Assembly (NCBI GenBank): GCA_963727845.1
Contig: CAVSHI010000003.1
Location: 937,913 to 1,001,912 of the forward strand
DNA: 64,000 nt
Direction of reading: 5' to 3'
Source: Ignavibacteriota bacterium
GTDB taxonomy: Bacteria > Bacteroidota > Ignavibacteria > UBA10030 > SZUA-254
The notes under the pieces are model-generated. The model ran no database searches. It was not told the origin of the DNA and saw nothing but the letters and a program-made list of their open reading frames with translations. A program made the translations under genes and the position numbers. Shown here piece after piece: positions 3,340-51,131 of the stretch (position 1 is its first letter; every line of letters starts with the position of its first letter).

Positions 3340-3360
3340 CCTGTTAATGGAGAATATCTT

Positions 3361-3873: not shown

Positions 3874-3897
3874 GATCCCAACATACGCAGCACGATC

Positions 3898-3924
3898 AAA
3901 TGCCGGGTCCCTGATCCGGCATTT
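3898..3924. terminator. hairpin between convergent genes (candidate bidirectional terminator)
   Basis: AAATGCCGG-gtccctgat-CCGGCATTT: perfect 9-bp stem followed by GTATTT, lying between the + gene ending at 3873 and mfd ending at 3962. Confidence 0.4.
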
Positions 3925-3961
3925 GTATTTCACGACAAAGAGCAGGCGGTAAAATGCGGTT

Positions 3962-8575: not shown

Positions 8576-8652
8576 GATAATAGACTTATAATAGTAGAAT
8601 TGCTACAAAAAGATACTAATTTTTTGAATAGGAAGAAACTCTTAAAATTTTT

Positions 8653-9105
8653 TTGTATGTTCTACATCGTGATATAATACACATGCCCGGAGTTTCGATA
8701 AATAGTAACTTGAATATTCCAATTTCGGAATTGCAGTTCCGTTTCGCCCGGAGCGGCGGACACGGTGGACAGAACGTCAACAAAGTGGAAACCCGCGTGG
8801 AATTACTGTTTGACGTGGCCCGGTCGCCGAGTCTTTCCGAATCCGACCGCGAGAGAATTCTCAAGCATCTGCAATCGAAAATCGATACGGCGGGCGTATT
8901 GCGCGTCGTCGCGCAGGAATCACGCAGTCAGTGGCGTAACCGCGAGGATGCCGTCGAGCGATTCACCGCACTTTTAAGCGCGGCCCTGAAGCCGAGGAAG
9001 AAACGGATTGCAACGAGAATCTCGGCCGGAGCGCGAGAGAAAAGGCTGGAAGAGAAGAGGCGGAGAAGCAGAATTAAGAAGCTGCGAACATCGAGAGAAG
9101 AATGA
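8653..9105 (+). CDS. arfB: alternative ribosome-rescue factor ArfB (peptidyl-tRNA hydrolase, GGQ family)
   Basis: GGQ motif (SGGHGGQNVNKVETRV) plus basic C-terminal tail (KRLEEKRRRSRIKK). Probable real start at ATG 8683. Confidence 0.8.
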   Translation: MYVLHRDIIHMPGVSINSNLNIPISELQFRFARSGGHGGQNVNKVETRVELLFDVARSPSLSESDRERILKHLQSKIDTAGVLRVVAQESRSQWRNREDAVERFTALLSAALKPRKKRIATRISAGAREKRLEEKRRRSRIKKLRTSREE

Positions 9106-9169
9106 ACCCGGCTCCACGCCGGACCACGGGATAGCCGTCCATTTCACATTATGACGTAGTTGCTGCCTC

Positions 9170-9186
9170 GCGATTCAGCGAATCGC
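9170..9186. repeat. REP palindrome copy 1 (GCGATTCAGCGAATCGC + ACTACAG tail)
   Basis: Perfect 17-nt palindrome; one of 5 same-orientation copies clustered around the RAYT gene. Confidence 0.8.
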
Positions 9187-9244
9187 ACTACAGAATTCTC
9201 GGCGCTTCACGCCTCCCAACCGCTTCAATTCACGCTGCCCATTC

Positions 9245-9261
9245 GCGATTCAGCGAATCGC
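9245..9261. repeat. REP palindrome copy 2 (GCGATTCAGCGAATCGC + GTTACAG tail)
   Basis: Identical palindrome; the tail contains the RAYT stop codon (CTGTAA on the minus strand). Confidence 0.8.
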
Positions 9262-9262
9262 G

Positions 9263-9928
9263 TTACAGGGGAACGTTGCAGTAACTCCATTTCCATTTTG
9301 TCCACTCTTGGACCATTCCAGCTTTAACCGGATTGTTGAGAACGTATTCGATAATCCGTCCGAGATCCCCGTCGTTGCGAACGACATGGTCATAACTTTC
9401 GTGCTGCCAAAAGATGCCGGAACGATACAGTATTTTGTTGGCTTCGTGCGCCGTGAACTTCTTCAAGGATCCAATGATGTCGGTGACAATGTAGCGCGAG
9501 ACGCCGTCTCGCGCAGGTAGCGATTCAGCGAATCGCTCTACGCTGAAAACCATGTGGACATGATTGGGCATAATACAATATGCAAGAAGTTCGTACGCCA
9601 TCTGATCTCTATATTTGATGGCAGCGGACACAAGTCCGGCGATGCGGTCATCACGCAGCCAGAATTGACCTTCAGCCGACGTATCCAAGAACCGATCAAA
9701 ATTTTCGAAATACTGTTTACGCGCTTCCTCGCGCGCCAGATTCCTTTCACTATCGTCGCGCATGTGAGCGATTTGCCTTTCCAGACCCAGGTGTTCTTTC
9801 TTCAGTTGCAATACGACATAATCAGGAAGTGATCCTGCGAGCCGGAATGTCACAAAGAATGTTCCCCGTAATGGCTGGTAGTGGGGTAATCGACAACGGT
9901 AATATATTAATTCGTCTCCCATGGTCAA
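9263..9928 (-). mobile_element. REP-associated tyrosine transposase (RAYT, IS200/IS605 TnpA-like Y1 HuH transposase)
   Basis: HuH motif (MPNHVHMVF) and C-terminal catalytic-Tyr region (IFWQHESYDHVVRNDGD…YVLNNPVKAGMV) matching the RAYT signature W-Q-x-x-(F/Y)-(W/Y)-D-H-x-I-R…NP-x-K-A-G. Flanked by REP copies. Confidence 0.8.
9519..9537. repeat. REP palindrome copy 3 (AGCGATTCAGCGAATCGCT), located inside the RAYT coding sequence
   Basis: Encodes …SVERFAESLP… in the RAYT frame. Preceded by a second 10-bp palindrome GCGCGAGACG-c-CGTCTCGCGC at 9495-9515. Confidence 0.75.
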
Positions 9929-9946
9929 ATGATGTGTCGCTCCCCT

Positions 9947-9965
9947 GCGATTCGGCGAATCGCAT
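9947..9965. repeat. REP palindrome copy 4 (TGCGATTCGGCGAATCGCA, centre CGG variant)
   Basis: Same palindrome with A->G at the centre; tail TTACGATG. Confidence 0.75.
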
Positions 9966-9999
9966 TACGATGTTCTCCCTCAGTCCATTTTGCTTATTC

Positions 10000-10016
10000 G
10001 CGATTCGGCGAATCGC
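10000..10016. repeat. REP palindrome copy 5 (GCGATTCGGCGAATCGC + GCTACAG tail)
   Basis: The tail overlaps the thyX stop codon (CTGTAG on the minus strand). Confidence 0.75.
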
Positions 10017-10017
10017 G

Positions 10018-11004
10018 CTACAGGCTGAGCTTGCTCAATTTCTCCAAAAACTCATCTGCCTCGCGCTCGCCAAGGCCTTTCAACTCAAGATATTCCTTTG
10101 TGATTGATGCAGCCTCGATATGTTCTTTCAAGACACACATTTCTAAACGCGAGAAATGTTCCGCCTTGAGGTTGTAGTCTTCGAATGCTTCCCACGCGAT
10201 CGGAGTAACCTTCCTTGTAATTTCCGCCATCGCTTCAGCATAAACGCGGATTTCGTACTGCGCGTGGGGATCCATCCGCAGGGCGAGAAAATGAAAAAGG
10301 TTGTGCAGATCGATTTTCCAGTACCACTCGGTATAGAGCGACAGCGGAAGGTGTACTCTCGCGAGCTCGCGGGCAATGTCGTTATCCAGCATCTGTTCGT
10401 ATTCCGCATACGTTTCGCGCTGGGCCGTGGTGAGTATTTCCAGCACTCTCTCTCGTAGCGCCGCCGGAACCTCGTCCACGGCGCGCCCCTGTCTGTTGCC
10501 TTTGCTCTGGTAGTGAATCGCGTCGTCTTCCGGGACGTAAAATTCGTCCTTCATCACTGAGTAGCGTCCCGAGTACTCATTCACGTTTGCCGTCCGGTGA
10601 CGGATCCACTGCCGCGCAACGAATATGGGAAGCTTCACGTGGAATTTAAGCTCCACCATCTCAAACGGTGTCGTGTGTTGATGACGCATGAGATAGCGGA
10701 TGAGTCCGCGGTCTTCATTAACTGATTTTGTTCCCTTCCCGTACGAGACGCGTGCCGCCTGCACGATCGATTCATCCCCACCCATATAATCGATGAGGCG
10801 TACGAAGCCGGCATTCAGGCACTTGAATTCCTTATCGAGCAGTTCGTTTGCCTGTGGATTTATGATATGGGCCATGCTTGTCAGTACCTGAAATAATTTT
10901 TCCGCGATTAACTGTTCAATGTACTGAATCGCAGAGAGAAAATCCATTTCAAAAATTTCTTCGGACCTTCGCGCCAAGCCTGCCACGGCAGCACATCGCT
11001 TCAA
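10018..11004 (-). CDS. thyX: flavin-dependent thymidylate synthase ThyX
   Basis: ThyX signature RHRxxxxxxxSxRY present (RHRTANVNEYSGRYS). 328-aa ORF; the true start may be an internal Met (e.g. MDFLSAIQ…). Confidence 0.85.
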   Translation of the reverse strand: MKRCAAVAGLARRSEEIFEMDFLSAIQYIEQLIAEKLFQVLTSMAHIINPQANELLDKEFKCLNAGFVRLIDYMGGDESIVQAARVSYGKGTKSVNEDRGLIRYLMRHQHTTPFEMVELKFHVKLPIFVARQWIRHRTANVNEYSGRYSVMKDEFYVPEDDAIHYQSKGNRQGRAVDEVPAALRERVLEILTTAQRETYAEYEQMLDNDIARELARVHLPLSLYTEWYWKIDLHNLFHFLALRMDPHAQYEIRVYAEAMAEITRKVTPIAWEAFEDYNLKAEHFSRLEMCVLKEHIEAASITKEYLELKGLGEREADEFLEKLSKLSL

Positions 11005-11054
11005 CTGGAGGCCGGAAGATTGTTATTCCAGGCGTTTTTTCGTATCTTTTTACC

Positions 11055-11462
11055 ATGATCAAAGTTGCCGTCGGCATCATTATTCAGAATGGACTCGCAG
11101 CACCCGACGTTACTCAGGTGCTCATGTGCCAGCGCAAGCCGACAGCGCTTTATCCGCTCAAGTGGGAATTTCCGGGCGGCAAGTTTGAAAACGGTGAGAC
11201 CGCCGAGGAATGTTTGCTTCGCGAATTGAAGGAAGAGCTGGGCATCAATGCAGAAATCGGCGGACTTTTTCACCGCGAACATCACATGTATCCCGACAGC
11301 GGGACATTCGACGTTCATTACTACCTTGTGCCATCATTCAGCGGGGCGCTTGTGAACCGGGCGTTCACGAATATCCGGTGGGTACCGACGGCGGAACTCC
11401 TGAATTTCGACATTCTGGAAGGGAACCGGGCTGTCATTCAAAAAATTATTAACCGCGCATGA
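11055..11462 (+). CDS. mutT: NUDIX hydrolase, MutT-like (8-oxo-dGTP diphosphatase)
   Basis: Canonical Nudix box GGKFENGETAEECLLRELKEELGI. Start taken at ATG 11055 (MIKVAVGIIIQ…); the longer track ORF from 10878 overlaps thyX. Confidence 0.75.
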   Translation: MIKVAVGIIIQNGLAAPDVTQVLMCQRKPTALYPLKWEFPGGKFENGETAEECLLRELKEELGINAEIGGLFHREHHMYPDSGTFDVHYYLVPSFSGALVNRAFTNIRWVPTAELLNFDILEGNRAVIQKIINRA

Positions 11463-12412
11463 AAGCACTGAACCCGGCGCACGTTAAGATCATTCGCGAA
11501 CAAATTCTCCCCTGGTACCGGAAAAATCGGCGGCCGCTTTTCTGGCGAACATTACGGGACCCTTATGCAATTCTGGTTTCGGAGATCATGCTTCAGCAGA
11601 CCCAGGCAGACCGGGTGGAAGAAAAACTTCCGCTGTTTCTGAAGAAATTTCCAACATTCGATACGCTTGCCGGTGCCCCCAAAGCGGACGTTCTCCGCGC
11701 CTGGCAGGGATTGGGATACAACAATCGCGCTGCTCGCCTCTGGGATCTTGCACGTATCATCGCGAAAGATTTCGACGGCAACCTTCCAGCCGACGTAAAC
11801 ACACTCGAACAACTCCCGGGCATCGGGCCTTACACCGCCCGTGCGGTCGCGTGCTTCGCCTTTCGGAAACACACTTATGTGGTGGATGTAAATGTGCGCC
11901 GAGTCCTTTCACGCGTATTCTGGAGATTACGGACACGTTCAGAGGTTGGGGAGGAACAGAACATCTCCCGGATCGCAGAACAGATCCTGCCCCAGGATGC
12001 ACAATCATGGAATCAGGCACTCATGGATCTGGGGTCGACGCTTTGCAAAGCACAGAAACCTCTCTGCCCCACCTGCCCCGTTTCAAATATGTGCCGCTCC
12101 CGGCATTTAGGAGCACAGCCGGGGCGACGACCGAGATCAAAGCTTGTTCCGCTTAAAGCCAGGCATCGCGTTGAACCAGCATATCAGGATATCCCCCGGC
12201 GAATCTGGCGCGGGCGCATTGTTGAAGTACTGCGCAATGTGAATGGCAGAGGGTCAATCTCGATGCCCGAACTCGGCAACTCCATCAAACCGGATTTCAT
12301 GAAGCGGGAACTCCCCTGGCTCAGCAGTCTCATCGATGCACTTCTCCGCGACGGCATCGTGAGCACGACAGGTCACAGAAACGACGCACGGGTAATGCTG
12401 GCGCACAAATGA
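11459..12412 (+). CDS. mutY: A/G-specific adenine DNA glycosylase MutY
   Basis: HhH-GPD fold (LPGIGPYTARAV) and 4Fe-4S loop C-x6-C-x2-C-x5-C (CKAQKPLCPTCPVSNMC). Start overlaps the mutT stop (ATGA). Confidence 0.85.
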   Translation: MKALNPAHVKIIREQILPWYRKNRRPLFWRTLRDPYAILVSEIMLQQTQADRVEEKLPLFLKKFPTFDTLAGAPKADVLRAWQGLGYNNRAARLWDLARIIAKDFDGNLPADVNTLEQLPGIGPYTARAVACFAFRKHTYVVDVNVRRVLSRVFWRLRTRSEVGEEQNISRIAEQILPQDAQSWNQALMDLGSTLCKAQKPLCPTCPVSNMCRSRHLGAQPGRRPRSKLVPLKARHRVEPAYQDIPRRIWRGRIVEVLRNVNGRGSISMPELGNSIKPDFMKRELPWLSSLIDALLRDGIVSTTGHRNDARVMLAHK

Positions 12413-13047
12413 AAAAACGACGGCAATCACTAACGATCCAAGAAATCCGCGAGCTGTACGAAGAACGGAAGAAAGCAATTCGCGAACGGCTTGCAGAATT
12501 TGCGGCCGTTCGCCCGTCGGCATATTTCTACGAGCTCGTTTACTGTCTCCTGACGCCGCAATCGAGCGCCGTCAACGCCGCGAAAGCAGTCCGGGTTCTC
12601 CGCGACCACAACCTCCGTCATTCTGAAATCGACCCTGAACCGCTGCTGTACCAGAAGGATTTCTATATCCGGTTCCACATAACGAAAGCAAAGCACCTCC
12701 TCGCAGTCAAGGAACAATTTCCATTCATCCGGAAGGAGCTTTTGAACGGCAGCTCCAGTGTGCGGTTGCGGGAGTGGCTGGTGAAGAACGTGAAGGGAAT
12801 CGGCTGGAAGGAAGCCTCGCATTTTTTGCGCAACATCGGGCATCGCGATCTCGCGATTCTCGACCGGCACATTTTGAAGAATCTTGTTCGCCTGGGCGTT
12901 TTGCGCCAGTTGCCGGCGACGCTCACCGCGAAACGATACAAATCAATCGAGAACAAATTCCGAAAATTTTCTGGCGAAGTGCGAATTCCTATGGATGATC
13001 TCGACCTGCTCTTCTGGAGTATGGAAACCGGAGAGATCTTGAAATAG
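12409..13047 (+). CDS. ogg: Ogg2-type 8-oxoguanine DNA glycosylase/AP lyase (archaeal-type N-glycosylase/DNA lyase)
   Basis: ~212 aa with HhH motif and Lys/Asp pair (VKGIGWKEASHFLRNIGHRDLAILDRHI) characteristic of the Ogg2 family. Start overlaps the mutY stop (ATGA). Confidence 0.65.
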   Translation: MKKRRQSLTIQEIRELYEERKKAIRERLAEFAAVRPSAYFYELVYCLLTPQSSAVNAAKAVRVLRDHNLRHSEIDPEPLLYQKDFYIRFHITKAKHLLAVKEQFPFIRKELLNGSSSVRLREWLVKNVKGIGWKEASHFLRNIGHRDLAILDRHILKNLVRLGVLRQLPATLTAKRYKSIENKFRKFSGEVRIPMDDLDLLFWSMETGEILK

Positions 13048-13314: not shown

Positions 13315-14460
13315 ATGAAAACGCTTGTCATCGGTGCCGGGATGATGGGAAGCGCGATGGCCTATGACCTCTCTCATTCGGAAAGCGTAACCGAAGTGCT
13401 CGTGGCCGACGTAAGCTACGAGAGGGCGGAAGCTGTCGCACTGTCGCTGGGCGACAACGTTCATCCATTGAAACTTGATATTCATTACTATGACGACGTG
13501 ATGTACGTGATGAGCACTGTGGATGTTGCTTTCGGCGCGACGTCGTACACGCACAACCATCTGCTGGCAAGAGCTGCGATTGAAGCGGGGGTTCATTTCT
13601 GCGATCTCGGGGGAAACATGGACGTTGTCGACCGACAGCTTTTGCTTGATCCCCGGGCGAAGGAGGCCGGTGTTTGCATCATCCCGAACTGCGGCCTTGC
13701 CCCCGGGATGGCCTGCGTCATCGCTGCCGGCGCCGCAAAGAAGTTTGAGCATGTCGATGAAATTCACATTCGGGTCGGCGGGCTTCCCCAGCATCCGCAG
13801 CCGCCGCTGAATTACCAGCTCGTCTTTTCCGCGGAAGGGCTCATCAACGAGTATCTTGAGCCGGCGGAAGCGATCCGGGACGGGAAAATTCAGAAGCTCG
13901 AATCGATGACGGAATGCGAAAAACTTGAATTCCCGCCGCCGTTCGGAAAACTGGAGGCATTCAACACGTCCGGTGGTATATCGACATTGACCAGAATGTT
14001 TGAGGGAAAGGTGAGAGACGTCGATTACAAAACCATCCGGTATCCGGGACATTGCGAGAAATTCAAAACGCTCCTGGACCTCGGATTCGCAAGTGCGGAG
14101 CCCATCATGGTCGGGAATTCCACCTCAACCGTACGGGAATTCTTCGAGAACCTTTTACGCAAGAAGCTCGCCTCAAACGGTCCCGATGTCGTGCTCATGC
14201 GCGTTACTGTCACCGGCACCATGGACGGCCGAAAGAGGACACTTGCGTATGAGTTGATAGATTATTATGATACAAATCTGAAGATGACATCCATGATGCG
14301 AACAACGGCCTTTCCAACATCAATCATCGGGCAGATGGTCGTGAACGGCACAATTTCAGTGCACGGCGTTTGTCCGCCGGAGCAGTGCGTACCGCTGGAG
14401 CCATTCCTGGCTGAATTATCCAAAAGAAATATCATTTTGAAAGAATCACTCGCAGGATGA
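13315..14460 (+). CDS. saccharopine dehydrogenase-family NAD(P) oxidoreductase (Lys1 / carboxy(nor)spermidine dehydrogenase-like)
   Basis: N-terminal Rossmann GxGxxG (MKTLVIGAGMMGSAMAYDL). Length and layout as in the Sacchrp_dh family. Confidence 0.7.
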   Translation: MKTLVIGAGMMGSAMAYDLSHSESVTEVLVADVSYERAEAVALSLGDNVHPLKLDIHYYDDVMYVMSTVDVAFGATSYTHNHLLARAAIEAGVHFCDLGGNMDVVDRQLLLDPRAKEAGVCIIPNCGLAPGMACVIAAGAAKKFEHVDEIHIRVGGLPQHPQPPLNYQLVFSAEGLINEYLEPAEAIRDGKIQKLESMTECEKLEFPPPFGKLEAFNTSGGISTLTRMFEGKVRDVDYKTIRYPGHCEKFKTLLDLGFASAEPIMVGNSTSTVREFFENLLRKKLASNGPDVVLMRVTVTGTMDGRKRTLAYELIDYYDTNLKMTSMMRTTAFPTSIIGQMVVNGTISVHGVCPPEQCVPLEPFLAELSKRNIILKESLAG

Positions 14461-16903: not shown

Positions 16904-17062
16904 TCATATATGTACAGCAATCTTCAGGACAACATTTCGCGGTTCTTCCCAGCTTGCTCCAGTAGTGTTTGCACCTTTGATGAGATGTGTGTGATCTAAT
17001 AAATTGGTAACATATTTGGACGGTTCGAAAGTGCTCCCTCCCTCAACCTCAAGAAATGTTTT
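16904..17062 (-). pseudogene. orphan 3'-terminal fragment of a TonB-dependent receptor paralogue
   Basis: Translation …GGSTFEPSKYVTNLLDHTHLIKGANTTGASWEEPRNVVLKIAVHI* is ~85% identical to the C-terminus of the TBDR at 17813..20302; the DNA is ~87% identical over ~190 bp (16873-17062 vs 17787-17975). Confidence 0.7.
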
Positions 17063-17708
17063 TTCCCCCTTTTTCCAGACATTCAGCGCCTTCCCGGTAA
17101 GAAAAATAAGCAATCACAACTGAGCCGACAGCATCAACATATCCAATGTTCGTAATCTGATATATCAGGCTCGCAATCAATAGTGTCAGGGACATTTGGA
17201 TGCAGACTTTTGTACAGTTGCCGTCTGCAATGATCGGTCGAGAATTCAGATCCCTCCCAACACGAAGTTTCGCCACCATCAAACCCATCATCATGAGTAT
17301 TGATAGAAGAGAGATGATGAGGCCTGGAACGGTTGTCTCTGGCTTATGATTGGTCACCGCTGCCACGATTGCACTGAACGCCAATGTCAAAGACAGAACA
17401 TAGAATGAAACACCAGTGACCTTCAAGGCGAATTGTTCAAAGTCATCTCTCACCACGTTATTGTTGTTTCGAATTCTCGTTATCAGGTGAGCAATTCCAA
17501 CTGCAGAGGCTGTTTCAATAAGGCTATCAATGCCGAAACCGAACAGCGTCAGGGTTTGGTCGGCATATCCAAAATAGAGCGAAAATATGGCTTCAAGCAA
17601 ACATGAAATGATCGTCAAAATACTCAAGCCGAAAGCAATCTTGTAGAGCTGTCTTTTCTCCATAGTACGGTGTCCTCTAATAATAACTCGCCCTCTGTTC
17701 GTTGCCAA
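17049..17708 (-). CDS. cation-diffusion-facilitator-like membrane protein (TMD only, degenerate metal-site motifs), AT-rich
   Basis: ~6 TM helices. CDF-like FGxxxDSLxE (FGFGIDSLIETASAV) and xIADGNCT in place of the DxxxH/HxxxD sites. GC visibly lower than surroundings. Probable start at MEKRQLYK (17663). Confidence 0.45.
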   Translation of the reverse strand: MATNRGRVIIRGHRTMEKRQLYKIAFGLSILTIISCLLEAIFSLYFGYADQTLTLFGFGIDSLIETASAVGIAHLITRIRNNNNVVRDDFEQFALKVTGVSFYVLSLTLAFSAIVAAVTNHKPETTVPGLIISLLSILMMMGLMVAKLRVGRDLNSRPIIADGNCTKVCIQMSLTLLIASLIYQITNIGYVDAVGSVVIAYFSYREGAECLEKGGKNIS

Positions 17709-17812
17709 ATGTCTGTATGATGGCTGAAAGCAGGTAAAGGTTGTACGGAATCACCTTCGCACCAGGAATCCGAGCTGCTCCCTCAAGCGTGAGATTCCTC
17801 TTCGCGAAGATT

Positions 17813-20302
17813 TCATATATGCAAGGCAATCTTCAAGACAACATTCCGCGGTTCTTCCCAGCTCGCTCCTGTGGTGTAAGCACCTTTGATTAGATGTATG
17901 TGATCCAATAGATTGGTAACATATATGGACGGTTCGAAAGAACTTCCTCCCTCGAGATGGAAGGTATGCCCTGCGCTAAAATTGAATATCCAATATGGAG
18001 TTGTATGTGCTGCCTGATTGAAATCGAACAATCCTGTTTTGTAGATGGAAACGTCCTCCGGGTGGCCGTTAGAAAGTCCGGATCCATACGTCACCTCGGG
18101 ATTGATATACCAATCTTGGGGCTGGTAGTTGATGGCAGCCACAATCGAAAGCCTTTGATCATGATCAAGGTCGGTTGCCGATCCGTCAGTGCTCGGGGGC
18201 AAGAAGCCCCCTGTCAGAGGACCCGAACCAACAGCATGAATGATTGAAGAGTTCAGGTGGCCCGAGAATGGGGTTGTCGGATCGCTATAGGAGAGTGAAC
18301 ACTCGATCCCGGTTGTCTTTACAGTGGCAATATTGAACGGGGTTTTGATTGCAGTATTACCGATTTGTGCATCATCCGTAAATGGACTGGCATACTTGAA
18401 GAAGGCCGCCGTTTTGAACCGGAGATTAACTGGAAAACTGTGGGTGTAGACGGCCTCATAGTAGGAGTCGCGCTCTGGAAATGTTGCTGTGACTGAGTTG
18501 CTTACACGTTGAGCTATCGATCTAAGTGCTTCAATATTTGTAGGCATGAAGAGCCTGCCGTAATACAGGTACGCTGAACTGTATTCATCTATGAGGAAAT
18601 TCCACCGGATTCTGGGGCTGACCTGTCGCTGGAGCGGAACCACTGGAGCGATATGTTGATCATAGCGGGTACCCAGATCGAACGAGGTCCAGTCGAGAGG
18701 ATGCCATTTAGTCTCCACGAAAATCCCACAATCTGAACCAGTGAAGTTGCTGAGGATTGATGGACCGGGGTTTTGCAAAGAATCACGAGATGTGAAATTC
18801 TCGGCCCCGCTGGTGCTACTAAGGTTGAATCCAACCTTATACATGAACTGGTGAGAAAGCCTCTCGTCGAACGTCGAGCGGATACCGAGCGTGGTAAAAC
18901 TTCTGTCCTCGAAGAGATTATAGTTTGTCGAATCTCCGGCAAATTGGAAGTTCGGTGGATCAATATCGCCAGGAGTATAGATCAAGTTACCTTCGCGCGT
19001 ATACGCTCCCATGAACAGGTTTTCCTCTTGACCGGGTTGTGAATTCATTTCACGGAAATAAGAAATTGCTTGCAATGAATTAGTTGTTGCCTGCACATCG
19101 GAAGTAATTTGCACCGTGGGATCGTAAGGAACTTGTGTGGAGGTTCTTCCAAAACTCAGATTTGCCGTTATGTAATCGATATCGCTAAGGATATAATCGA
19201 ACTTGCCGTAGAGAAAATAATCGAACCCATGGTCGTGAAACAGATTTGGCACGGGGGTGTCTATGCGACGATCTGTTTCCTGACGCGAGGCGGATGCATA
19301 ATATCCCAATTTGCCAAGGTGATCACTAATCGACAAAGCCTCGCCGTCTGAATTAAGTGCTCTGAAAGGGCCGACGCGACCGCCGAGTGTGTCACCTGGG
19401 ATAGCCGATGACGGGCCGGATGCGACTTCGGTTCCAGCCGAAAGGGGTTTGGTTCCATTGAACACAAGATAACTCCCCACATATGTCGAAGCATCGAGAT
19501 GAAATGTTCCTGTCGGGACACGGTTATTCAGGTCGATGATGGCAGACATCTGGCCACCGTACTCAGCGGGGAATCCTCCCGTGATGAAAGTTGCACGGTC
19601 TATGACTTTCGGATCGACAACTTCATTTAATCCCCCAAATACGCCCAGCGGAACCGGAATACCATCGATATAATACGTGAATTCTCCGTGTTGTCCCCGG
19701 ATATGGACTTCACTTGTAGGCGCCCGTGCTGCCCCCGTGAGGTTTTGCTGAATCAAGTTTGTCATTTGAGCCGTCGGCGGTGGGTGATAGGTTTCTGATT
19801 CAAAGGTTTGATTGCCAGTACTGACATTGATATTCGAAACGCCAGGTTCACGATGGCCGACCACTTCAACGCCCTGAAGTTGACTATCCTTTGGCCGGAG
19901 GTTAATTGTGCAGGTTGTGTGATCCTGATTTATCAGAACGGAATCCGTGTAAATCTCATAGCCGACGAACCAGGCGGTCAGCGTGTAAAAGCCTGGTTGT
20001 ATATTGCGAATCCAAACTTGTCCTGCCGTATTGGTTGCATCCTCAGCAACGACTTTTTTCCCATGCTGCAATACCACTCGTGCAAGGCCGATGGGGACTT
20101 TTTCATTAGCATCATAAACTGATATCCTGAAATCTATGCCCTCTTTGCCTTGTGGAGTGGAAATTGTCCGCTCTGCATGTGCGAAAGAGGTAATCCACAT
20201 AAACAGACATAATAGCATCATAGAGGAAATTCTTTGATGTACCATCTCTATAATTTGTCGCATAAATGCCATAGATCGTGTTCGCCTTTTTTCGAACATC
20301 AT
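17813..20302 (-). CDS. TonB-dependent outer-membrane receptor (CarboxypepD_reg-like N-domain + plug + beta-barrel)
   Basis: 829 aa. Signal peptide, then carboxypeptidase-regulatory-like segment (FRISVYDANEKVPIGLARVVL…GFYTLTAWFVGYEIY), plug-like region and long barrel. Start overlaps the stop of the upstream gene (ATGA at 20299-20302). Confidence 0.75.
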   Translation of the reverse strand: MMFEKRRTRSMAFMRQIIEMVHQRISSMMLLCLFMWITSFAHAERTISTPQGKEGIDFRISVYDANEKVPIGLARVVLQHGKKVVAEDATNTAGQVWIRNIQPGFYTLTAWFVGYEIYTDSVLINQDHTTCTINLRPKDSQLQGVEVVGHREPGVSNINVSTGNQTFESETYHPPPTAQMTNLIQQNLTGAARAPTSEVHIRGQHGEFTYYIDGIPVPLGVFGGLNEVVDPKVIDRATFITGGFPAEYGGQMSAIIDLNNRVPTGTFHLDASTYVGSYLVFNGTKPLSAGTEVASGPSSAIPGDTLGGRVGPFRALNSDGEALSISDHLGKLGYYASASRQETDRRIDTPVPNLFHDHGFDYFLYGKFDYILSDIDYITANLSFGRTSTQVPYDPTVQITSDVQATTNSLQAISYFREMNSQPGQEENLFMGAYTREGNLIYTPGDIDPPNFQFAGDSTNYNLFEDRSFTTLGIRSTFDERLSHQFMYKVGFNLSSTSGAENFTSRDSLQNPGPSILSNFTGSDCGIFVETKWHPLDWTSFDLGTRYDQHIAPVVPLQRQVSPRIRWNFLIDEYSSAYLYYGRLFMPTNIEALRSIAQRVSNSVTATFPERDSYYEAVYTHSFPVNLRFKTAAFFKYASPFTDDAQIGNTAIKTPFNIATVKTTGIECSLSYSDPTTPFSGHLNSSIIHAVGSGPLTGGFLPPSTDGSATDLDHDQRLSIVAAINYQPQDWYINPEVTYGSGLSNGHPEDVSIYKTGLFDFNQAAHTTPYWIFNFSAGHTFHLEGGSSFEPSIYVTNLLDHIHLIKGAYTTGASWEEPRNVVLKIALHI

Positions 20303-20817
20303 TGGAAGCCAAACAGTATGCCCGCAGATGCTCCCAAAGACTGCGAGGATCTCTCGCCAAACGTGGAGCTATAACCTGGCTCTATATACCAGCCCACGTT
20401 CGTTTTTGGCCAGCACATGAAGTCGAGAACGATTTCCATATCATAGGAGGTTGTACGATCGTTCCCACCAAATTTGTGAACCACTTCAGGCCCAAGGCCG
20501 AACATAAACTCCGCAGTGTGAGATAGTCGATATGGTTTCTTGAACAGAAGGTCAATTCCAACTTCGGTGTGATCCGAAGTTTGGAGTGCGGTTACGCCGC
20601 TTTCCAACTCGAGCCAATTTTCTATCGGTGTTACCTCGACCGCAAACGTGCCGCCGAATTGAAATGAAGATTCATTAAGATCCCATTCTCCTGCCGGTCC
20701 AATCTCGAGAACCAGACCATGATCCTTGTCGACATCCTCTTGAGCGAGGACAGAGCACGCGGAGCATTGAAGAACGCCAACGACGAGAATCATCCACAAT
20801 CTTACTTTACATCGCAT
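20299..20817 (-). CDS. small secreted hypothetical protein, first gene of the TBDR operon
   Basis: 172 aa with a signal peptide (MILVVGVLQCSACSVLAQ). Preceded by the DtxR/MntR-type operator and promoter. Confidence 0.6.
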   Translation of the reverse strand: MRCKVRLWMILVVGVLQCSACSVLAQEDVDKDHGLVLEIGPAGEWDLNESSFQFGGTFAVEVTPIENWLELESGVTALQTSDHTEVGIDLLFKKPYRLSHTAEFMFGLGPEVVHKFGGNDRTTSYDMEIVLDFMCWPKTNVGWYIEPGYSSTFGERSSQSLGASAGILFGFQ

Positions 20818-27648: not shown

Positions 27649-28548
27649 TCATTTCAATTTGTCTCCTTCATTAAGCGGTGCCAAGTAGACCGAGCTTTCA
27701 TCCTCATGTGCGCCCCAGTCATAAACTATTGATTTCTCATCATTCGAGATATCCCAACTCAGGATATTTTGGTCATGACCACACTCAAATACTTTCTTCG
27801 CCGGGTTCTTTCCTTCGACATCTATTTTCCACACCGAATAATTGTCGCCGTAGTATAGAAATTTGGCATCGTTCGACCACTTTGCATGTTTTACTGTTAT
27901 CCCTTGCAAGAAGATCGCCTGACCGTCGCCGCTTGCCATCATAAGCCAAATTCTTGGCTGACCTGAATTGTGGTCCACACGTAGATAAGCGATGAGCTTC
28001 CCATTGGGAGACCAATCTCCCATGTATTCAAACTCCCTCTCCGGCTCTTTTGTCAGAGGTTGGGTGTACTCACCGCTTGTGTCAACGATCCAAAGTTGGC
28101 TGCCGTGGGAAAAGACAATGTTCTTCCCGTCCGGTGACCACAATGGGAATATATCGATTGAATCATGCATGCTAGACTGCTTGAGCAAACGATGCGGATT
28201 GCTGCCATCGGAGTTCATGACAAAAAGTTGATAGGATGTGTCGCGAACACCTTGGAACTGATAAACCAGCTTGCTGCCGTCAGGGCTCCATGAAGCATTG
28301 ACCTCTTCGGGAGCATGACCAATTTGTCTTTTGTTCTTGCCTGTAACACTCATCGTCCAAATCTTTCCGTTGTGCCGGTAGACGATCTTTGTACCTTGAC
28401 GGTTGAACTTAGGTGAGTCGCCATCCGCCAGAACTTTCACTTTGGATTGTCCATCCACCCGTAACATTGTGTAAAGAGAGACGATGGCGATACATACCAA
28501 TTTGACCATGATCGGACATCCTGTCTTTATACTTCTTCCTTTTAGCAC
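27649..28548 (-). CDS. TolB-like beta-propeller protein (PD40/WD40-like repeats), secreted
   Basis: Repeated SWSPDGSKLVY / LWSPDGKNIVF / DWSPNGKLIAY motifs. Signal-anchor MVKLVCIAIVSLYTM (start probably 28509). Confidence 0.65.
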   Translation of the reverse strand: MLKGRSIKTGCPIMVKLVCIAIVSLYTMLRVDGQSKVKVLADGDSPKFNRQGTKIVYRHNGKIWTMSVTGKNKRQIGHAPEEVNASWSPDGSKLVYQFQGVRDTSYQLFVMNSDGSNPHRLLKQSSMHDSIDIFPLWSPDGKNIVFSHGSQLWIVDTSGEYTQPLTKEPEREFEYMGDWSPNGKLIAYLRVDHNSGQPRIWLMMASGDGQAIFLQGITVKHAKWSNDAKFLYYGDNYSVWKIDVEGKNPAKKVFECGHDQNILSWDISNDEKSIVYDWGAHEDESSVYLAPLNEGDKLK

Positions 28549-46392: not shown

Positions 46393-47072
46393 TGGAAGAC
46401 CCGATCGTGGCAAGCGACCTTCCCGTAACTGCAACCATCATTAATTTCCGAACGCCCGACCTGTTGAAACGCGCGGCGGAAAGCCTGCTGAAGTATTACC
46501 CCAATATCACGGCACTTTTGATCGACAACGGCTCCGGTAACGGAAGCGCGGGAGCGATAGAGACAATCCGGCTACGGAATCCCGCGCACACAGAGGTCAT
46601 ATTGAATGGTGAAAACCTTCACCACGGACCCGCTATGGACCAGGCTCTCCGGCATCTCCGGTCGCGGTACGTTCTGTTCCTGGACTCCGATGCCGAGCTC
46701 CGCGCCGGCCGATTTCTCGAAATGATGGTAAACGCGGCGGAAGAGCATCCGGGCGTGTATGCTGTGGGGCATTGCGTTCGAATGAACAAGCGTGGATTTG
46801 ATGTCCCCCGGGAGAAGGGGGGAACTCCGTATATCCGCCCGTATTGCATGTTGATACGGCGAGAGTTATATTTGACTCTCCCGAGTTTTGAACGGCACGG
46901 CACCCCGTGCCTGGCGAACATGAAAGCCGCCGTCGATCGCGGCCTGACGCTGGTTGACTTTCCCGTTTACGATTACGTCGCCCATGAAGGCCGGGGGACA
47001 GCAGGAAAATTCGGTTACCAACTCGGCGTACGCGGCAAGTTCAATCATGTTATGAATAAACTTGGCTGGTAG
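46389..47072 (+). CDS. glycosyltransferase family 2
   Basis: GT-A fold with DxD (LFLDSDAE) and TATIINFRTPDLL N-terminus; start overlaps the upstream stop. Confidence 0.7.
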   Translation: MMEDPIVASDLPVTATIINFRTPDLLKRAAESLLKYYPNITALLIDNGSGNGSAGAIETIRLRNPAHTEVILNGENLHHGPAMDQALRHLRSRYVLFLDSDAELRAGRFLEMMVNAAEEHPGVYAVGHCVRMNKRGFDVPREKGGTPYIRPYCMLIRRELYLTLPSFERHGTPCLANMKAAVDRGLTLVDFPVYDYVAHEGRGTAGKFGYQLGVRGKFNHVMNKLGW

Positions 47073-47085
47073 GGCCTGAACGTTC

Positions 47086-47469
47086 ATGAAGAAAAAAACA
47101 ATCCTCATAGTCGAAGACAGTCCCGGTTTTTCCGAGCTCATGAAGTATGTGGTGGAAGATGAAGGATATACCGGAGTCATATTTCCCCTCGAGGAAAACT
47201 TCCTTCACTGGGTCGAAAAGGAAAAACCGGCCGCCATTATCATGGATCTGGCTCTCAACCGCATGAGCGGCTTCGATTTCATCCGCGAGCTGAAGAACAG
47301 CGGGAAACTCAAACACATCCCCGTTATCGTCATCACGGGCAAGGACCTGGGCGCGCATGATATTGCAGAGCTGAAAATGCTCGACATTCCCTATCTCCGC
47401 AAGGGACGCGTTGACATGCATGAAATCCATCAAGCCATCAAGAACGCGGTTGGAGCATCGGAAAGTTGA
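47086..47469 (+). CDS. single-domain response regulator (CheY-like receiver)
   Basis: ILIVEDSP…(phospho-acceptor Asp in IIMDLAL)…PVIVITGK receiver motifs; no output domain. Confidence 0.75.
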   Translation: MKKKTILIVEDSPGFSELMKYVVEDEGYTGVIFPLEENFLHWVEKEKPAAIIMDLALNRMSGFDFIRELKNSGKLKHIPVIVITGKDLGAHDIAELKMLDIPYLRKGRVDMHEIHQAIKNAVGASES

Positions 47470-47826
47470 TTCCGCAAGGGCAGGACTAATCTCCGCTTTT
47501 TCAAGACACCGTCCGTTCCCCGCGCCGCCTCACCATTTCCTTTAAATCTCAATGCGCGGAGGCCGTTGAGAATCACGACCTGCGCAGTGCCGCCATCCGC
47601 AAAAACAGTAACTTGGGAAACCATCCCGAACCTTCGGAATGTTTACCGAGAAAGTTCCAAGATCAACCTTGCGAAGGTTTACCGTTTCTGAGAGAACGCC
47701 TGGCTGAGCTCCGCTGGCATCGCGCGTTCCCAAATGGAATTTGGGAACGCGAACCGCCGCGGAATATCTCTTGACTTTCCGCAAGCCCTTCTGTACCTTG
47801 TGATTGTCAATTTGAGAAGCGTCTAA

Positions 47827-48876
47827 GTGAGGCCAGCATATTCCTCCAGACTATTAGGAGTCACCTTGAAAAACCATAAGAGTCGCATTCAACTAATTTC
47901 TATTTTGGGGTTTTCTCTTTTCAGTAAAACGGTTCTTCCTCAGGCTTCAATGGATTCGGTACAACAGGAAATGATCCGTTTTGTCGGAAAATTAGATAAC
48001 AATGCTGGATTACTTTTTGGCATGTATAATGAAAAAACGGGTGACGTCAAAATATTAACAGAAGGTGCAATAGATAAGAATGACGATCTTCGAGTCGCTT
48101 GTCCAATCACGAAACCGTGTGTTGCATATATGGTTTTAAAGGAAGGTTTGAATTTAAACTCGTCAATTAGTAAATGGTTTCCTGTGGAAAAAGGATACAC
48201 AAAAGCTGACACAATAACTCTACGGATGTTACTATATCACACAAGTGGCATCAGAGATTTTGCGAGAGTTGTTAAGATCGATCCCTATAAGAAAGTTACT
48301 CCGATTGAGACAATAAACCTTGCATATCAAAATCAGCCACTCGACTTTATACCCGGCTCAAGATACCAATACTCAAATACCGATTACAATATTCTTGGAA
48401 CAATCCTAGTGCAAACTAGGAATAAATCATTTGAGGGTTTGATAAAGGAATATTTTGGGCCAGTTTCCCCCACCTTACGCCTTGATGATGGTGAAGGAAA
48501 ATATCCTAGGGGTTATTCTAATCCGTGGCCATATCATTGGAGCACAACAGGATACGCGGGCGGCTTGATTTCGACAGCAGAAGATGCAATGAAAGTGTTT
48601 TCGTACATCTCCAAGTCTCCCGAATATCAACAAATGACGGAATGGATAAGAGATTCGGAAAAAAGTAATCATTTGGTCGGAATGGGCGTGTTTGCATTTG
48701 ACAACTTTCACAATTTGGGTAGGGCAGTTTACTACGATGGTGATATGATGGCAAACCAGATGTTCATAATTAAAATTGGCGATACCATTTATTATTTCCA
48801 CACTACTCACCAAGTAGTGCTGGAAGAACTGATAAATTTTTCATACAAAGTTATTTCATTAGTTCATAACAAATAG
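47827..48876 (+). CDS. beta-lactamase/PBP-family serine-hydrolase homologue, AT-rich, with non-canonical SxxK motif
   Basis: YSNTDYNILG (class-C/esterase Y-x-N element) and overall PF00144-like layout. At the expected S-x-x-K position the sequence is C-P-I-T-K. GC content and codon usage (AAA/AAT/TTT-rich) differ markedly from flanking genes. Start uncertain (TTG 47866 gives a signal-peptide-like N-terminus). Confidence 0.6.
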   Translation: MRPAYSSRLLGVTLKNHKSRIQLISILGFSLFSKTVLPQASMDSVQQEMIRFVGKLDNNAGLLFGMYNEKTGDVKILTEGAIDKNDDLRVACPITKPCVAYMVLKEGLNLNSSISKWFPVEKGYTKADTITLRMLLYHTSGIRDFARVVKIDPYKKVTPIETINLAYQNQPLDFIPGSRYQYSNTDYNILGTILVQTRNKSFEGLIKEYFGPVSPTLRLDDGEGKYPRGYSNPWPYHWSTTGYAGGLISTAEDAMKVFSYISKSPEYQQMTEWIRDSEKSNHLVGMGVFAFDNFHNLGRAVYYDGDMMANQMFIIKIGDTIYYFHTTHQVVLEELINFSYKVISLVHNK

Positions 48877-49132
48877 ATAATACCCCCCAACCAGTTGCTG
48901 TCCGAATGAGTCTCTCAGGGAAAACATCACCCCGACCAAAAGTCCGAAAGGTTCGAAGGATTTCTCTAGAGAATCATTTCCCCGCTCCGAAGGAGTCTCT
49001 TGGGGAAGGGGCATTCGAACGTGGCGTGTCGAGCAAACGACTCCAATCATAGTTCCTCCCTACGCAAAAAAAAAATCGGCGAGGAATTGCGATTGTGACG
49101 CACAATCTTAACATTAACTTAAGGATAAAACC

Positions 49133-49354
49133 ATGACAAATGACATAAATGTTTCTGCACACGATCATAGAGGGAAAAAAGGAATGAAAGACGGCGGGGC
49201 CTTCGGCAGTATTTATGGGCTGGCCTTCATCGGCGCTGCGGTTTACTACATCCAGCATTCCTCCACATTCTGGGAAGGCGTGCTCGGTATCCTCAAGGCC
49301 CTGGTTTGGCCTGCCTTGTTGATGTACAAATTGCTTGAGTTCCTCAAAATGTAG
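49133..49354 (+). CDS. small hypothetical membrane protein (73 aa)
   Basis: Two predicted TM helices (FGSIYGLAFIGAAVYYI, GVLGILKALVWPALLMY). Preceded by palindrome GATTGTGacgCACAATC and a reasonable RBS; coding status unproven. Confidence 0.4.
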   Translation: MTNDINVSAHDHRGKKGMKDGGAFGSIYGLAFIGAAVYYIQHSSTFWEGVLGILKALVWPALLMYKLLEFLKM

Positions 49355-49499
49355 GCACATTGGACCGCACATAGCCCCGATTCTGGCAAATCGTGGCTGA
49401 GAAACAACCCCGCACGCAGATACATCTTCTTGAATCTGAGGGTATCCCCGGGCAAGCCATTCCCACTAAAGGCCAACAGCTAATTACCAACAGCCGGTT

Positions 49500-51131
49500 T
49501 TACATCTTCTCCGGCGCGGCAATTCCGAGGATCGCACATCCGTTGGCAAGAACGGTTTTCGTCCCGAGACACAGCGCTATGCGCGCTGCGGTCACCGCCT
49601 TTTCCTCCGTGATCACCCTATGGGCATGGTAAAATTTGTGAAAACTCCCCGCCGCCGCCTGGAGGTACTCTGCAAGTCGGTGCGGCTCGAACGTCACCGC
49701 ACAGGATTCAACCATATCCGGAAAATCGGCGAGCTGTTTCATGAGCGCCATCTCCTCGGCGTGGGAGAGCAGTGAGAGATCCGCCGGTGAACTGCCGTCG
49801 ATTCCCTGGCTCTCCGCGTGACGGAGTATGCTCGCGATCCGCGCATGGGCATACTGCAGGTAGTAGACGGGATTCTCCTCCGAACGCTCTTTCGCAAGCT
49901 TCAGATCAAAATTCAAGTGACTGTCGATGCTCCGCATGAGGAAGAAATAGCGCACGACGTCGGCTCCGACTTCCTCGATCAGCTCATCGAGCGTGATGAA
50001 ATTTGCCTTCCTCGTGGACATCTTTACGACTTCGCCGCCCTGCACGATTGTTACAAACTGGTGAATGAGCACTTTCACCTTCGTCGCGTCGAGCCCGAGC
50101 GCCCGCAGGCCCGCCAGCACGTCGGGATATGTGGCAACGTGGTCGGCTCCGAACACATCGACGACGAGCTCAAACCCGCGCCGGAATTTCTCCCGGTGGT
50201 ACGCAATATCCGGAAGGCGGTACGTCGGCTCGCCCGTGCTCTTCACGATAACCTTGTCTTTCTCGCCGCCCAGCGCACTTGCTTTGAACCACACGGCGCC
50301 GTCCTGGTCATATGCCAGCCCCTTTGCCCGTAATTCTTCGATGATCTCTTTTATCTTACCGGTCTCGTACAACGAGTTCTCGTTATAGAACACATCGAAC
50401 TCGATCCCGAGCCGTTGCAAAGTTTTTTTGATGTCGTCGAAAATCTCCCCTTCGGCCTGCCGCTTAAACATTCCTTCCGCCGGCTCGGCTTTCAGTCTGT
50501 CGCCGTGCTCGTCCTTCAGATGGCCGGCAATGGCCTTGATGTACTCGCCCTGATAATAGTCTGCGGGATATTCGGCCTTTTCTCCGAAGAGCTCCAGATA
50601 GCGCAGCCGGACCGAATCTCCGAGTATGCGCATCTGCCTGCCGGCGTTGTTGAAATAATACTCCCGCGTAACGTCGTAGCCGGTCCACTCAAGCAGCCGC
50701 GCTACGGTATCGCCGAACACGGCCCCGCGGCCATGACCGACGGTCAGCGGTCCGGTCGGGTTGGCGCTCACAAACTCGACTTGCGTTTTCTTCCGGAATC
50801 CGAGGTTGAGCCGACCGAACTCCTTGCCGGCGCGCACGATGTTGCCAAGCTGTTGCTCAAAGAACTTCGCGGTAAAATGAAAATTGATGAAGCCCGGCCC
50901 GGCAATTTCAACACGGTCGACGAAAGAAGTGTCGACATCCAGGCTGTCAACGATGCGCTGGGCGAGCTGGCGAGGAGGTTCCCCTGCCTGTTTTGCAACG
51001 ACCATCGCGATATTCGTTGTGAGGTCGCCATGCTCCGGAACGCGCGGCTTCTCGAACGTCGGCAGGGCAGAATCGCCCACACCGATGGCCTTCAAGGCCG
51101 AACCAACCCGCTCGCGAAGATACTGTTTCAT
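49500..51131 (-). CDS. argS: arginine--tRNA ligase
   Basis: Class I aaRS with HIGH-type motif region (SANPTGPLTVGHGRG) and DALR anticodon-binding C-terminus. Confidence 0.9.
   Translation of the reverse strand: MKQYLRERVGSALKAIGVGDSALPTFEKPRVPEHGDLTTNIAMVVAKQAGEPPRQLAQRIVDSLDVDTSFVDRVEIAGPGFINFHFTAKFFEQQLGNIVRAGKEFGRLNLGFRKKTQVEFVSANPTGPLTVGHGRGAVFGDTVARLLEWTGYDVTREYYFNNAGRQMRILGDSVRLRYLELFGEKAEYPADYYQGEYIKAIAGHLKDEHGDRLKAEPAEGMFKRQAEGEIFDDIKKTLQRLGIEFDVFYNENSLYETGKIKEIIEELRAKGLAYDQDGAVWFKASALGGEKDKVIVKSTGEPTYRLPDIAYHREKFRRGFELVVDVFGADHVATYPDVLAGLRALGLDATKVKVLIHQFVTIVQGGEVVKMSTRKANFITLDELIEEVGADVVRYFFLMRSIDSHLNFDLKLAKERSEENPVYYLQYAHARIASILRHAESQGIDGSSPADLSLLSHAEEMALMKQLADFPDMVESCAVTFEPHRLAEYLQAAAGSFHKFYHAHRVITEEKAVTAARIALCLGTKTVLANGCAILGIAAPEKM

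Follow-up and report, generated by a model that had tools for sequence, protein, structure and literature searches.

A Cys-Pro motif in place of the active-site serine in a conserved, probably cassette-borne family of secreted beta-lactamase-fold proteins

In the current report, we describe a gene encoded on the plus strand at 47866-48876 of a 64,000-nucleotide stretch of DNA (the window) from an Ignavibacteriota bacterium (assembly GCA_963727845.1, contig CAVSHI010000003.1). Its product is a secreted, single-domain protein with the fold of penicillin-binding proteins (PBPs) and beta-lactamases, similar to family S12 of MEROPS, in which the expected Ser-x-x-Lys motif gives way to Cys79-Pro80-Ile81-Thr82-Lys83. 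This change is shared by 33 of 33 sequences in its clade, at identities down to approximately 39% and across several phyla, which bears out, for a whole family, the non-canonical nucleophile motif pointed out in a preliminary description of this DNA. Overall, the best explanation, and on balance a probable one, is that the gene came from a cassette and specifies a secreted acyl-transfer hydrolase whose nucleophile is a cysteine. The protein is not filed as an ordinary active-site-serine member of the fold, because a sequence reading finds no Ser-x-x-Lys and an altered third motif.

The gene is the single long plus-strand open reading frame (ORF) of the region, with a TTG start and 336 amino acids (aa). 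A ribosome-binding site (RBS), AGGAG at 47856-47860, lies directly ahead of TTG 47866, and the 336-aa homologues begin with Met-Lys at the matching position. The start at 47827 given initially had to be abandoned, as the GTG found there is merely a mechanical ORF start and TTG 47866 with its AGGAG fits the 336-aa homologues. All of these homologues use ATG, from which the start codon of the window copy is altered to TTG. Judged by eye, the first ~27 residues resemble a signal peptide (K/H/K/R, followed by LISILGFSLF and then PQA-S), and two distant family members have a lipobox, LLGC, in its place. The public version of the protein (P0001) is 308 aa long and starts from Met29, which would remove the signal peptide. 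The gene and its motifs are located as follows.

47866..48876, plus strand: gene for a 336-aa secreted PF00144/S12-like protein, TTG start
48100..48114, plus strand: Cys79-Pro80-Ile81-Thr82-Lys83, codons TGT CCA ATC ACG AAA, read from the sequence
48370..48378, plus strand: Tyr169-Ser170-Asn171, the second motif (Y-x-N), intact, read from the sequence
48733..48741, plus strand: Tyr290-Asp291-Gly292 at the third-motif position, placed by hhalign

The nucleophile stretch of the window protein reads LRVACPITKPCVAY (C79 at 48100-48102, K83 at 48112-48114)—that is, R-V-A-C79-P80-I-T-K83 where relatives have G-S-x-[ST]-K. There is no Ser three residues before the Lys, although the Lys itself is kept, and the alignment to the PF00144 profile called for in the preliminary description revealed no genuine Ser-x-x-Lys elsewhere in the protein. 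The second motif, YQYSNTDYNILG, contains YSNTDYNILG exactly as quoted there and is of the Tyr-x-Asn (class C/S12) type; Y169-S170-N171 is invariant in the clade, and YSNT occurs in 29 of the 29 full-length members. At the third motif, where Lys/His-Thr/Ser/x-Gly is expected on strand beta3, Tyr290-Asp291-Gly292 keeps the Gly alone. Here hhalign matches YYDGDM to GHRGQT, and the nearest canonical relatives carry G-H-D-G. Nearly all clade members read x-Y-[D/E]-G at this position. Since Y-x-G (WYSG, WYTG) is also found in some canonical, Ser-containing relatives, the third-motif change is not disqualifying by itself.

Conservation of these features was followed through several collections. A search of 5.8 billion proteins returned 23 relatives at 46-90% identity, and [AG]-C-P-x-[TS]-K is present in every one of them (23/23). 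When 1.84 billion representatives clustered at 50% identity were searched with a profile of the clade, approximately 11 were found with E <1e-30, along with further C-P members that include fragments, and a genome scan added members from Ignavibacteriaceae, Bacteroidia, and Eisenbacteria. The Eisenbacteria member reads GCPTGK and sits in native high-GC DNA (GC 0.66). For the family as a whole, the nucleophile motif can be written [RK]-h-[AG]-Cys-Pro-x-[ST]-Lys, in place of R-h-[GA]-Ser-x-[ST]-Lys, and the third motif Tyr-[Asp/Glu]-Gly, in place of His-Asp-Gly. The family ranges over Bacteroidota/Ignavibacteria, Calditrichaceae, and metagenome-assembled genomes (MAGs) of Eisenbacteria, and the C-P clade is monophyletic in a neighbor-joining (NJ) tree with 98% bootstrap. 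Lys83, Tyr169, Ser170, Asn171, and Gly292 are invariant across it. The ratio of nonsynonymous to synonymous substitution (dN/dS) is 0.11-0.20 pairwise among five homologues and 0.11-0.16 for the window gene against four homologues. Cys79 is the sole clade-invariant Cys; a frequent second Cys at +6 is lacking in nine members, and a required disulfide through Cys79 was rejected because this is the one other common Cys. Databases annotate the members as 'serine hydrolase domain-containing protein' or 'beta-lactamase family protein'. A natural Cys-nucleophile lineage, marked by Cys-Pro-x-x-Lys, Tyr-Ser-Asn, and Tyr-Asp-Gly and spread on integron cassettes among environmental bacteria, is a realistic proposal, if one that falls slightly short of probable.

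Three observations in the neighborhood of the clade stand apart from these counts. P0110, which begins MVACPIPKSK, was considered as a further variant and rejected, being a fragment that lacks its N-terminus and belongs to a different branch. P0057, from a neighboring canonical group, reads G-S-I-N-N, having lost the Lys of S-x-x-K, and has H-D-S at the third motif; it represents another case, and an independent one, of an active site that has degenerated within this family neighborhood. Finally, residues 203-234 (~48472-48567) form a block, SLR-DDG-G-YP-GY--PWPYHWS--GYAGGL, that is conserved in the C-P clade and, in part, also among the nearest canonical relatives. Within it, His224-Trp225-Ser226 is invariant in the clade and residues 226-231 are modelled with a predicted local distance difference test score (pLDDT) below 50; judging from the model, the block may be a mobile active-site loop.

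Membership in the PBP/beta-lactamase fold is supported by a Pfam match to PF00144 (E 8e-23; 81.5 bits, with the cut-off at 27), and the two-domain plan that goes with it (alpha/beta plus all-alpha) is present. For bla_class_C, the NCBIfam class C model, the score is 16.3 bits and the cut-off 415; the class C models of NCBIfam as a whole give 12-24 bits, and the named AmpC families all score at most 24 bits against cut-offs of 266-900; with scores this far below the cut-offs, the protein is not AmpC-type. Nor does it fit family VIII carboxylesterases, as defined by an S-x-x-K nucleophile, esterase activity, and EstB-type closest relatives. The closest solved relatives by sequence are the Bacillus alkaline D-peptidase (ADP; 4y7p) and the D-stereospecific hydrolase dHy1 (9s7k), followed by the Streptomyces D-amidohydrolase (3wwx), the Ochrobactrum D-amino acid amidase (2dns), and the Streptomyces R61 DD-peptidase (1cef). 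A plasmid collection held no near relative, with the best match being 31% identity to Bacillus ADP-like genes. Thus, the earlier placement with class C and family VIII was right about the Y-S-N motif, but the kinship lies instead with the S12 D-stereospecific peptidases/amidases and R61. These S12/PF00144 enzymes are merely 17-24% identical to the window protein, and they differ from it in having a Ser nucleophile instead of Cys-Pro with one extra residue before the Lys, and the His of H-x-G instead of Tyr.

The central question is which residue stands for the serine. D-D-L-R-V-A-C-P-I-T-K in the family stands against D-x-L-R-I-G-S-L-S-K in the nearest canonical relatives, making the family one residue longer; the upstream anchor, L-R-h-[GA], adjoins the Cys, and the downstream anchor, x-[ST]-K, adjoins the Pro. 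Two further sequences, P0049 and P0194 (52% mutual identity), read T-A-S-P-G-S-K, with Ser at the Cys position and the Pro kept. Helix register was compared by DSSP secondary structure in AlphaFold2 (AF2) models made identically for the window protein and for a canonical relative, P0196. In P0196, strand A97-R99 and coil V100 precede a helix that starts from G101, with S102 as its second residue; in the window protein, strand L75-R76 and coil V77 precede a helix from A78, in which C79 is second. The Lys is helix residue 5 in the former model and 6 in the latter, and residues i and i+4 of a helix lie on a common face. Cysteine chemistry is also viable in this fold: engineered S70C forms of OXA-48 and KPC-2 both turn over penicillins, and OXA-48 S70C keeps approximately one quarter of the wild-type kcat/KM (PMC6391942). 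On the strength of the S-P-G-S-K group, the matched helix register in the models, and the viability of Cys chemistry, we favor Cys79 as the equivalent of Ser and Pro80 as the inserted residue of a one-residue indel.

The mechanism that would follow has Cys79, at the N-terminus of helix alpha2 and in the usual place of the serine, acting as the acylation nucleophile. The inserted Pro80 would shift Lys83 one residue further along the helix, Lys83 and Tyr169 would provide the general base/acid, and the reaction would go through a thioester acyl-enzyme. Weighed from sequence and models, this Cys79-nucleophile mechanism stands at an even balance. The retention of Lys83, Tyr169, Asn171, and Gly292 is what leads us to infer that catalysis has been retained. 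By analogy, the likely substrate would be a D-amino-acid-containing peptide, amide, or ester of the envelope or environment, e.g., a peptide antibiotic or a peptidoglycan fragment.

Several points weigh against a cysteine nucleophile. HMMER, MAFFT, and hhalign all align Pro80 with the Ser column of S-x-x-K. Cys/Ser and Pro/Ser each score -1 in BLOSUM62, which makes the aligners' choice of Pro arbitrary, and the initial description of a Pro at the Ser position with a Cys immediately before it is correct as to the residues but fixes on one of two equal-scoring indel positions. Were Pro80 structurally at the Ser site, the oxyanion hole would be deprived of the backbone NH that forms one half of it. 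The S-P group consists of two sequences and neighbors the C-P clade in the NJ tree at merely 46% bootstrap. Around residues 71-80, the AF2 model has a moderate confidence (block mean 78), and the DSSP register comparison is built on predictions alone, with an error of one residue possible. With Tyr for His in the third motif, the active site is altered at two places, and the likely substrate is assigned purely by analogy with the nearest relatives.

The strongest rival is a catalytically dead pseudoenzyme, in which Pro80 replaces Ser, the Cys is structural or contacts a ligand, and the protein has a periplasmic binding, sensor, or scaffold role. There is precedent in MipB, a Pseudomonas aeruginosa pseudoenzyme in which all three motifs are lost or degenerate and which has two extra C-terminal domains (PMC10936184); like the window protein, it is an envelope protein of the same fold without S-x-x-K. 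In contrast to MipB, the window protein family keeps Lys, Y-S-N, and Gly invariant together with a nucleophile-capable residue. Invariance of Lys83, Tyr169, Ser170, Asn171, and Gly292 would be unexpected once catalysis had been abandoned, the position beside the Pro is invariably filled by a residue able to act as a nucleophile (Cys, or in the S-P group Ser), and the helix register of the matched models puts Cys, not Pro, at the Ser place. We therefore consider the pseudoenzyme unlikely, albeit a serious competitor.

Alternatively, the protein could be an active enzyme with other chemistry, in which Cys79 is a metal ligand or redox switch and another residue or an activated water is catalytic; the candidates are the His224-Trp-Ser226 loop, His312, and Asp291. 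Polar residues that are clade-invariant outside the motifs (D115, D207, H224, S226, and E253), with H312 and D291 conserved in at least 90%, are in keeping with this idea, as is the low model confidence of the H224 loop, which is expected of a mobile active-site loop. No positive sign of a metal site was seen, however, and the H-W-S block and H312 also occur in nearby canonical Ser-x-x-Lys relatives and so are not specific to the Cys-Pro change. Both the general idea and the named candidates are accordingly improbable, and clearly more so than the pseudoenzyme.

The origin of the gene can be stated with greater assurance. With a GC content of 0.378 (0.359 at third codon positions, GC3), it is the lowest ORF in the window by both measures. 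Sliding windows of 1011 nucleotides (nt) elsewhere in the 64 kb have a mean GC of 0.527 (sd 0.025), giving the gene a z of -6.0, and against the means of the 55 other window ORFs of at least 120 aa (GC 0.528, GC3 0.614) its z values are -5.7 and -4.2. The edges of the GC trough are sharp, at ~47800 and ~48900. The striking AT-richness relative to the neighbors that was remarked on at the outset is therefore real (GC z -5.7 to -6), and windowed analysis places it outside normal variance.

Comparison with sister genomes shows that this DNA occupies a variable slot. The neighbors, in order, are ribH, a PorZ-like propeller, a GT2 (glycosyltransferase family 2) gene, a response regulator, the slot itself, a 73-aa membrane protein, argS, and rsfS, and they are conserved at 86-88% nt identity in other assemblies, including the Bacteroidota-labelled MAG GCA_049515655.1, a label that, together with T9SS genes, points to the affiliation of the window. 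The intervals compared were 47470-49132 of the window, 8385-12568 of locus L087, 10392-12002 of locus L090, and the ERZ1426824 contig. Homology to the sisters extends to 47845 and resumes at ~48930 in L090, or at 49059-49088 by blastn. Among close relatives, what lies between the genes for the response regulator and the 73-aa membrane protein takes four different forms.

Window: the Cys-Pro gene
L090: an unrelated 295-aa secreted protein, GC 0.42
L087: a 278-aa homologue of the 295-aa protein of L090, with a P-type ATPase/ArsR pair inserted upstream
ERZ1426824 contig: the ATPase/ArsR pair, the slot gene being absent (from the gene table only)

The nearest homologues of the Cys-Pro gene (80-90% aa identity) are found in unrelated contexts, among small same-strand ORFs on contigs with GC 0.31-0.45; those in loci L081 and L082 have the GC of their flanks (0.32-0.33). 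The cassette array in L085 is unmistakable, with six ~180-nt repeats, one after each same-strand ORF, that start GCCTAAC...AAGCTGACGG and end CCGTCAGCTT...GTTAGGC, and whose bottom strand folds into a single long hairpin (z -2.05). In L081, a different inter-ORF element is repeated, ending GGGTTAGGC (GTTAGGC). In L083, GCCCTAAT...GTTAGGA surrounds the gene, and in L001 repeated intergenic modules lie between same-strand ORFs. The core consensus of integron attC sites is RYYYAAC / GTTRRRY. As in integron cassettes, the homologues are promoterless single-ORF units in same-strand arrays, each followed by an imperfect RYYYAAC...GTTRRRY palindrome, although typical attC sites are shorter than the ~180-nt repeats of L085. 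Full agreement with the cassette plan—a promoterless single ORF with its attC, in a same-strand array—was seen in the homologues only. The window copy is likewise a single ORF but sits behind a resident promoter, keeps only the first ~30 nt of attC, and has housekeeping genes as neighbors. The corresponding features of the window are listed below.

47846..48929, plus strand: window-specific (acquired) DNA with the leader, the gene, and the first ~50 nt past the stop, delimited by blastn/MAFFT breakpoints against L087 and L090 and by the GC trough
47836..47865, plus strand: 5' leader including the RBS AGGAG, aligned to the leader that this cassette has in L085, L083, L082, and L081
48877..48910, plus strand: remnant of the 5' half of attC, ATAATACCCCCCAACCAG, with an R''-like core, CCCCAAC, at 48885-48891, from alignment
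47771..47799, plus strand: promoter-like TTGACT-17 nt-TACCTT, read from the sequence, in the recipient backbone

The remnant, ATAATACCCCCCAACCAG, corresponds to GCAATGCGCCCTAACCAC in L085, the common stretch being the first ~30 nt past the stop. Beyond this and the ~30-nt leader, no further cassette match was found in the window, and there is no 3' half of attC. The block 47770-47845, which contains the promoter-like sequence, is conserved in L087 and L090 with a different gene downstream; a simple sigma-70 scan did not list TTGACT-17-TACCTT because TACCTT is a poor -10 hexamer.

Taken together, composition, a slot whose content differs in the sisters, and homologues in attC-bounded arrays uphold the horizontal acquisition suggested in the preliminary description, and it is very probable that the family travels as integron-type cassettes and that the gene was acquired into this slot. 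Under the proposed scenario, low-GC lineages would be the likely reservoir of the family's cassettes, one of which would have landed, or been swapped in, just downstream of the resident promoter, in the hypervariable slot between the response-regulator gene and the small membrane-protein gene adjoining argS. The cassette would have kept its own leader and RBS and lost the 3' half of its attC; with the distal half lost it would now be fixed in place, and it would be expressed from the host promoter. A 'recent' acquisition here means one after the split from sisters that are ~12-14% diverged in DNA. The nearest known homologue lies at a synonymous divergence (dS) of ~0.49, which leaves no recent donor in hand.

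Some results count against the cassette interpretation. A regular-expression scan for attC, based on ungapped complementarity, found nothing even in L085 and is too crude to weigh. No recombinase Pfam match was present among the called genes of the homologue loci, which are short contigs and on which no dedicated IntI/attC model was run, nor was one present within ~10 kb of the slot in the syntenic sisters; with no integrase seen in any locus, the mechanism of recombination is itself deduced. In the window, 48877-49020 folds like its shuffles (z -0.12 and +0.07 for the two strands), so that no intact attC is present, and an intact site with CCCCAAC/CTTGGGG cores was dropped on account of the z of ~0 on either strand. 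The label 'integron-type' thus refers to repeat architecture and core sequences. Integron cassettes and attC clusters do occur away from an integrase, both in CALIN-type arrays (clusters of attC sites lacking integrases) and as insertions at secondary sites.

A native gene with low GC arising from local constraint or low expression is far less probable. Other window ORFs dip as well (0.44-0.49 at 17049-20817 and 0.46 at 27649-28548), but this gene is 5.7 sd below the mean, far under those dips, has sharp GC boundaries, is missing at this slot from three sister configurations, and recurs, at 80-90% aa identity, in contigs of GC 0.31-0.45 that are unrelated. Least of all can the gene be a decaying pseudogene or a sequencing or assembly error, in which a single TCA-to-CCA (Ser to Pro) change would have befallen an ordinary serine hydrolase: CCA is one substitution from TCA and a weak TTG start stands where homologues have ATG, but this explanation is refuted by the recurrence of C-P-x-x-K in 33 independent sequences, drawn from many samples and phyla, a full-length ORF without a frameshift, and a dN/dS of 0.11-0.16 against four homologues.

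The preliminary description also reported imperfect direct repeats of ~30 bp after the gene. Such repeats exist, but they are 22 nt long and slightly displaced from the positions given there.

48901..48922, plus strand: direct repeat copy 1, TCCGAATGAGTCTCTCAGGGAA, in window-specific DNA just past the attC remnant
48986..49007, plus strand: direct repeat copy 2, TCCGAAGGAGTCTCTTGGGGAA, in backbone DNA

The copies agree at 19 of 22 positions and are the sole two in 64 kb, where none are expected (100 shuffles). L090 carries a related sequence, ACCGAAGGGATCTTTTGGAC, at the place of copy 2; the repeats do not bound the acquired DNA, as copy 2 lies in backbone common to L090. No Rfam family, significant structure, or tandem array was detected for them, and they may be traces of the 3' junction, left by microhomology or a local duplication. 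A periodic unit of ~42 nt in the 3' region was unsupported, Tandem Repeats Finder having found no array there.

Upstream of the promoter, within the region of 47629-47684 and 47723-47751, two 20-nt direct repeats (AACCTTCGGAATGTTTACCG / AACCTTGCGAAGGTTTACCG) were noted, the second of which contains the hairpin AACCTT-GCG-AAGGTT, along with a perfect 13-bp stem, CGCGTTCCCAAAT-GGA-ATTTGGGAACGCG; 47666-47817 is 93% conserved in L090. This region could serve to terminate the regulator gene, or it could be an operator. A terminator scan found none, Rfam at a permissive threshold gave no match in 47000-49600, and a tRNA scan of the window was empty; by these latter two results, the flanks have neither a tRNA integration site nor a known RNA. 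The 278-aa slot gene of the sisters is not claimed as a cassette, with five homologues, no Pfam match, and no obvious attC in L092. The secondary GC dips (0.44-0.49 against 0.53 at 17049-20817; 0.46 at 27649-28548) cover genes for a cation-efflux protein, a CarboxypepD_reg/Plug protein (TonB-dependent-receptor-like), a 171-aa unknown, and a PD40/DPPIV-type propeller, and may be older acquisitions.

Further repeats and a transposase fragment were observed in the homologue loci. In L001 (Calditrichaceae), a ~750-nt module, far longer than attC, occurs 80-88% identical ahead of the Cys-Pro gene and again ahead of the same-strand ORF before it (3335-4126 and 5142-5894), with a third, partial copy downstream (7950-8009). 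L081 has approximately eight tandem 42-nt units at 2720-3055, just upstream of the cassette-like array in which the homologue P0008 lies, and a 172-nt and a 95-nt repeat pair bracketing the array region (3171-3438 and 14177-14445). In L083/L084, a Transposase_20 (IS110-family) fragment at 3109-3726 lies two genes downstream of the homologue P0005, where the flank GC is 0.45.

Cysteine forms of this fold are familiar from the laboratory. A TEM S70C thiol beta-lactamase was reportedly obtained by Sigal et al. in 1982. The engineered S70C forms of OXA-48 and KPC-2 likewise place Cys for Ser in the same fold and indicate that a thioester acyl-enzyme is chemically viable (PMC6391942); they are, however, laboratory point mutants with C-x-x-K spacing, whereas the family described here is a natural, conserved lineage with C-P-x-x-K and an altered third motif. 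In a literature search of incomplete coverage, the PBP/serine-beta-lactamase superfamily was regarded throughout as one of active-site-serine enzymes, no natural Cys form of the PBP/beta-lactamase fold was found described, and Cys versions were solely laboratory mutants. L,D-transpeptidases of the YkuD fold carry out periplasmic peptidoglycan/D-amino-acid chemistry with a Cys nucleophile and would be alike in this respect if the Cys hypothesis is right, although they are unrelated to the window protein in fold and ancestry. Why Ser is used in D,D-transpeptidases and Cys in L,D-transpeptidases is a question that has already been posed (PMC6391942), and a conserved, selected, and mobile Cys-Pro family offers a natural test case for the use of one or the other.

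As a case of probable cassette capture, the locus is a clean one: the gene lies behind a resident promoter, in a chromosomal slot that is hypervariable. The family also shows that motif screens that demand S-x-x-K miss a cassette-borne branch of a resistance-relevant fold, or else mislabel it as 'serine hydrolase'. If a cysteine nucleophile is indeed used, members of the family would form thioester acyl-enzymes, their response to serine-directed inhibitors might differ, and the lineage would amount to a natural experiment on why the fold otherwise always uses Ser.

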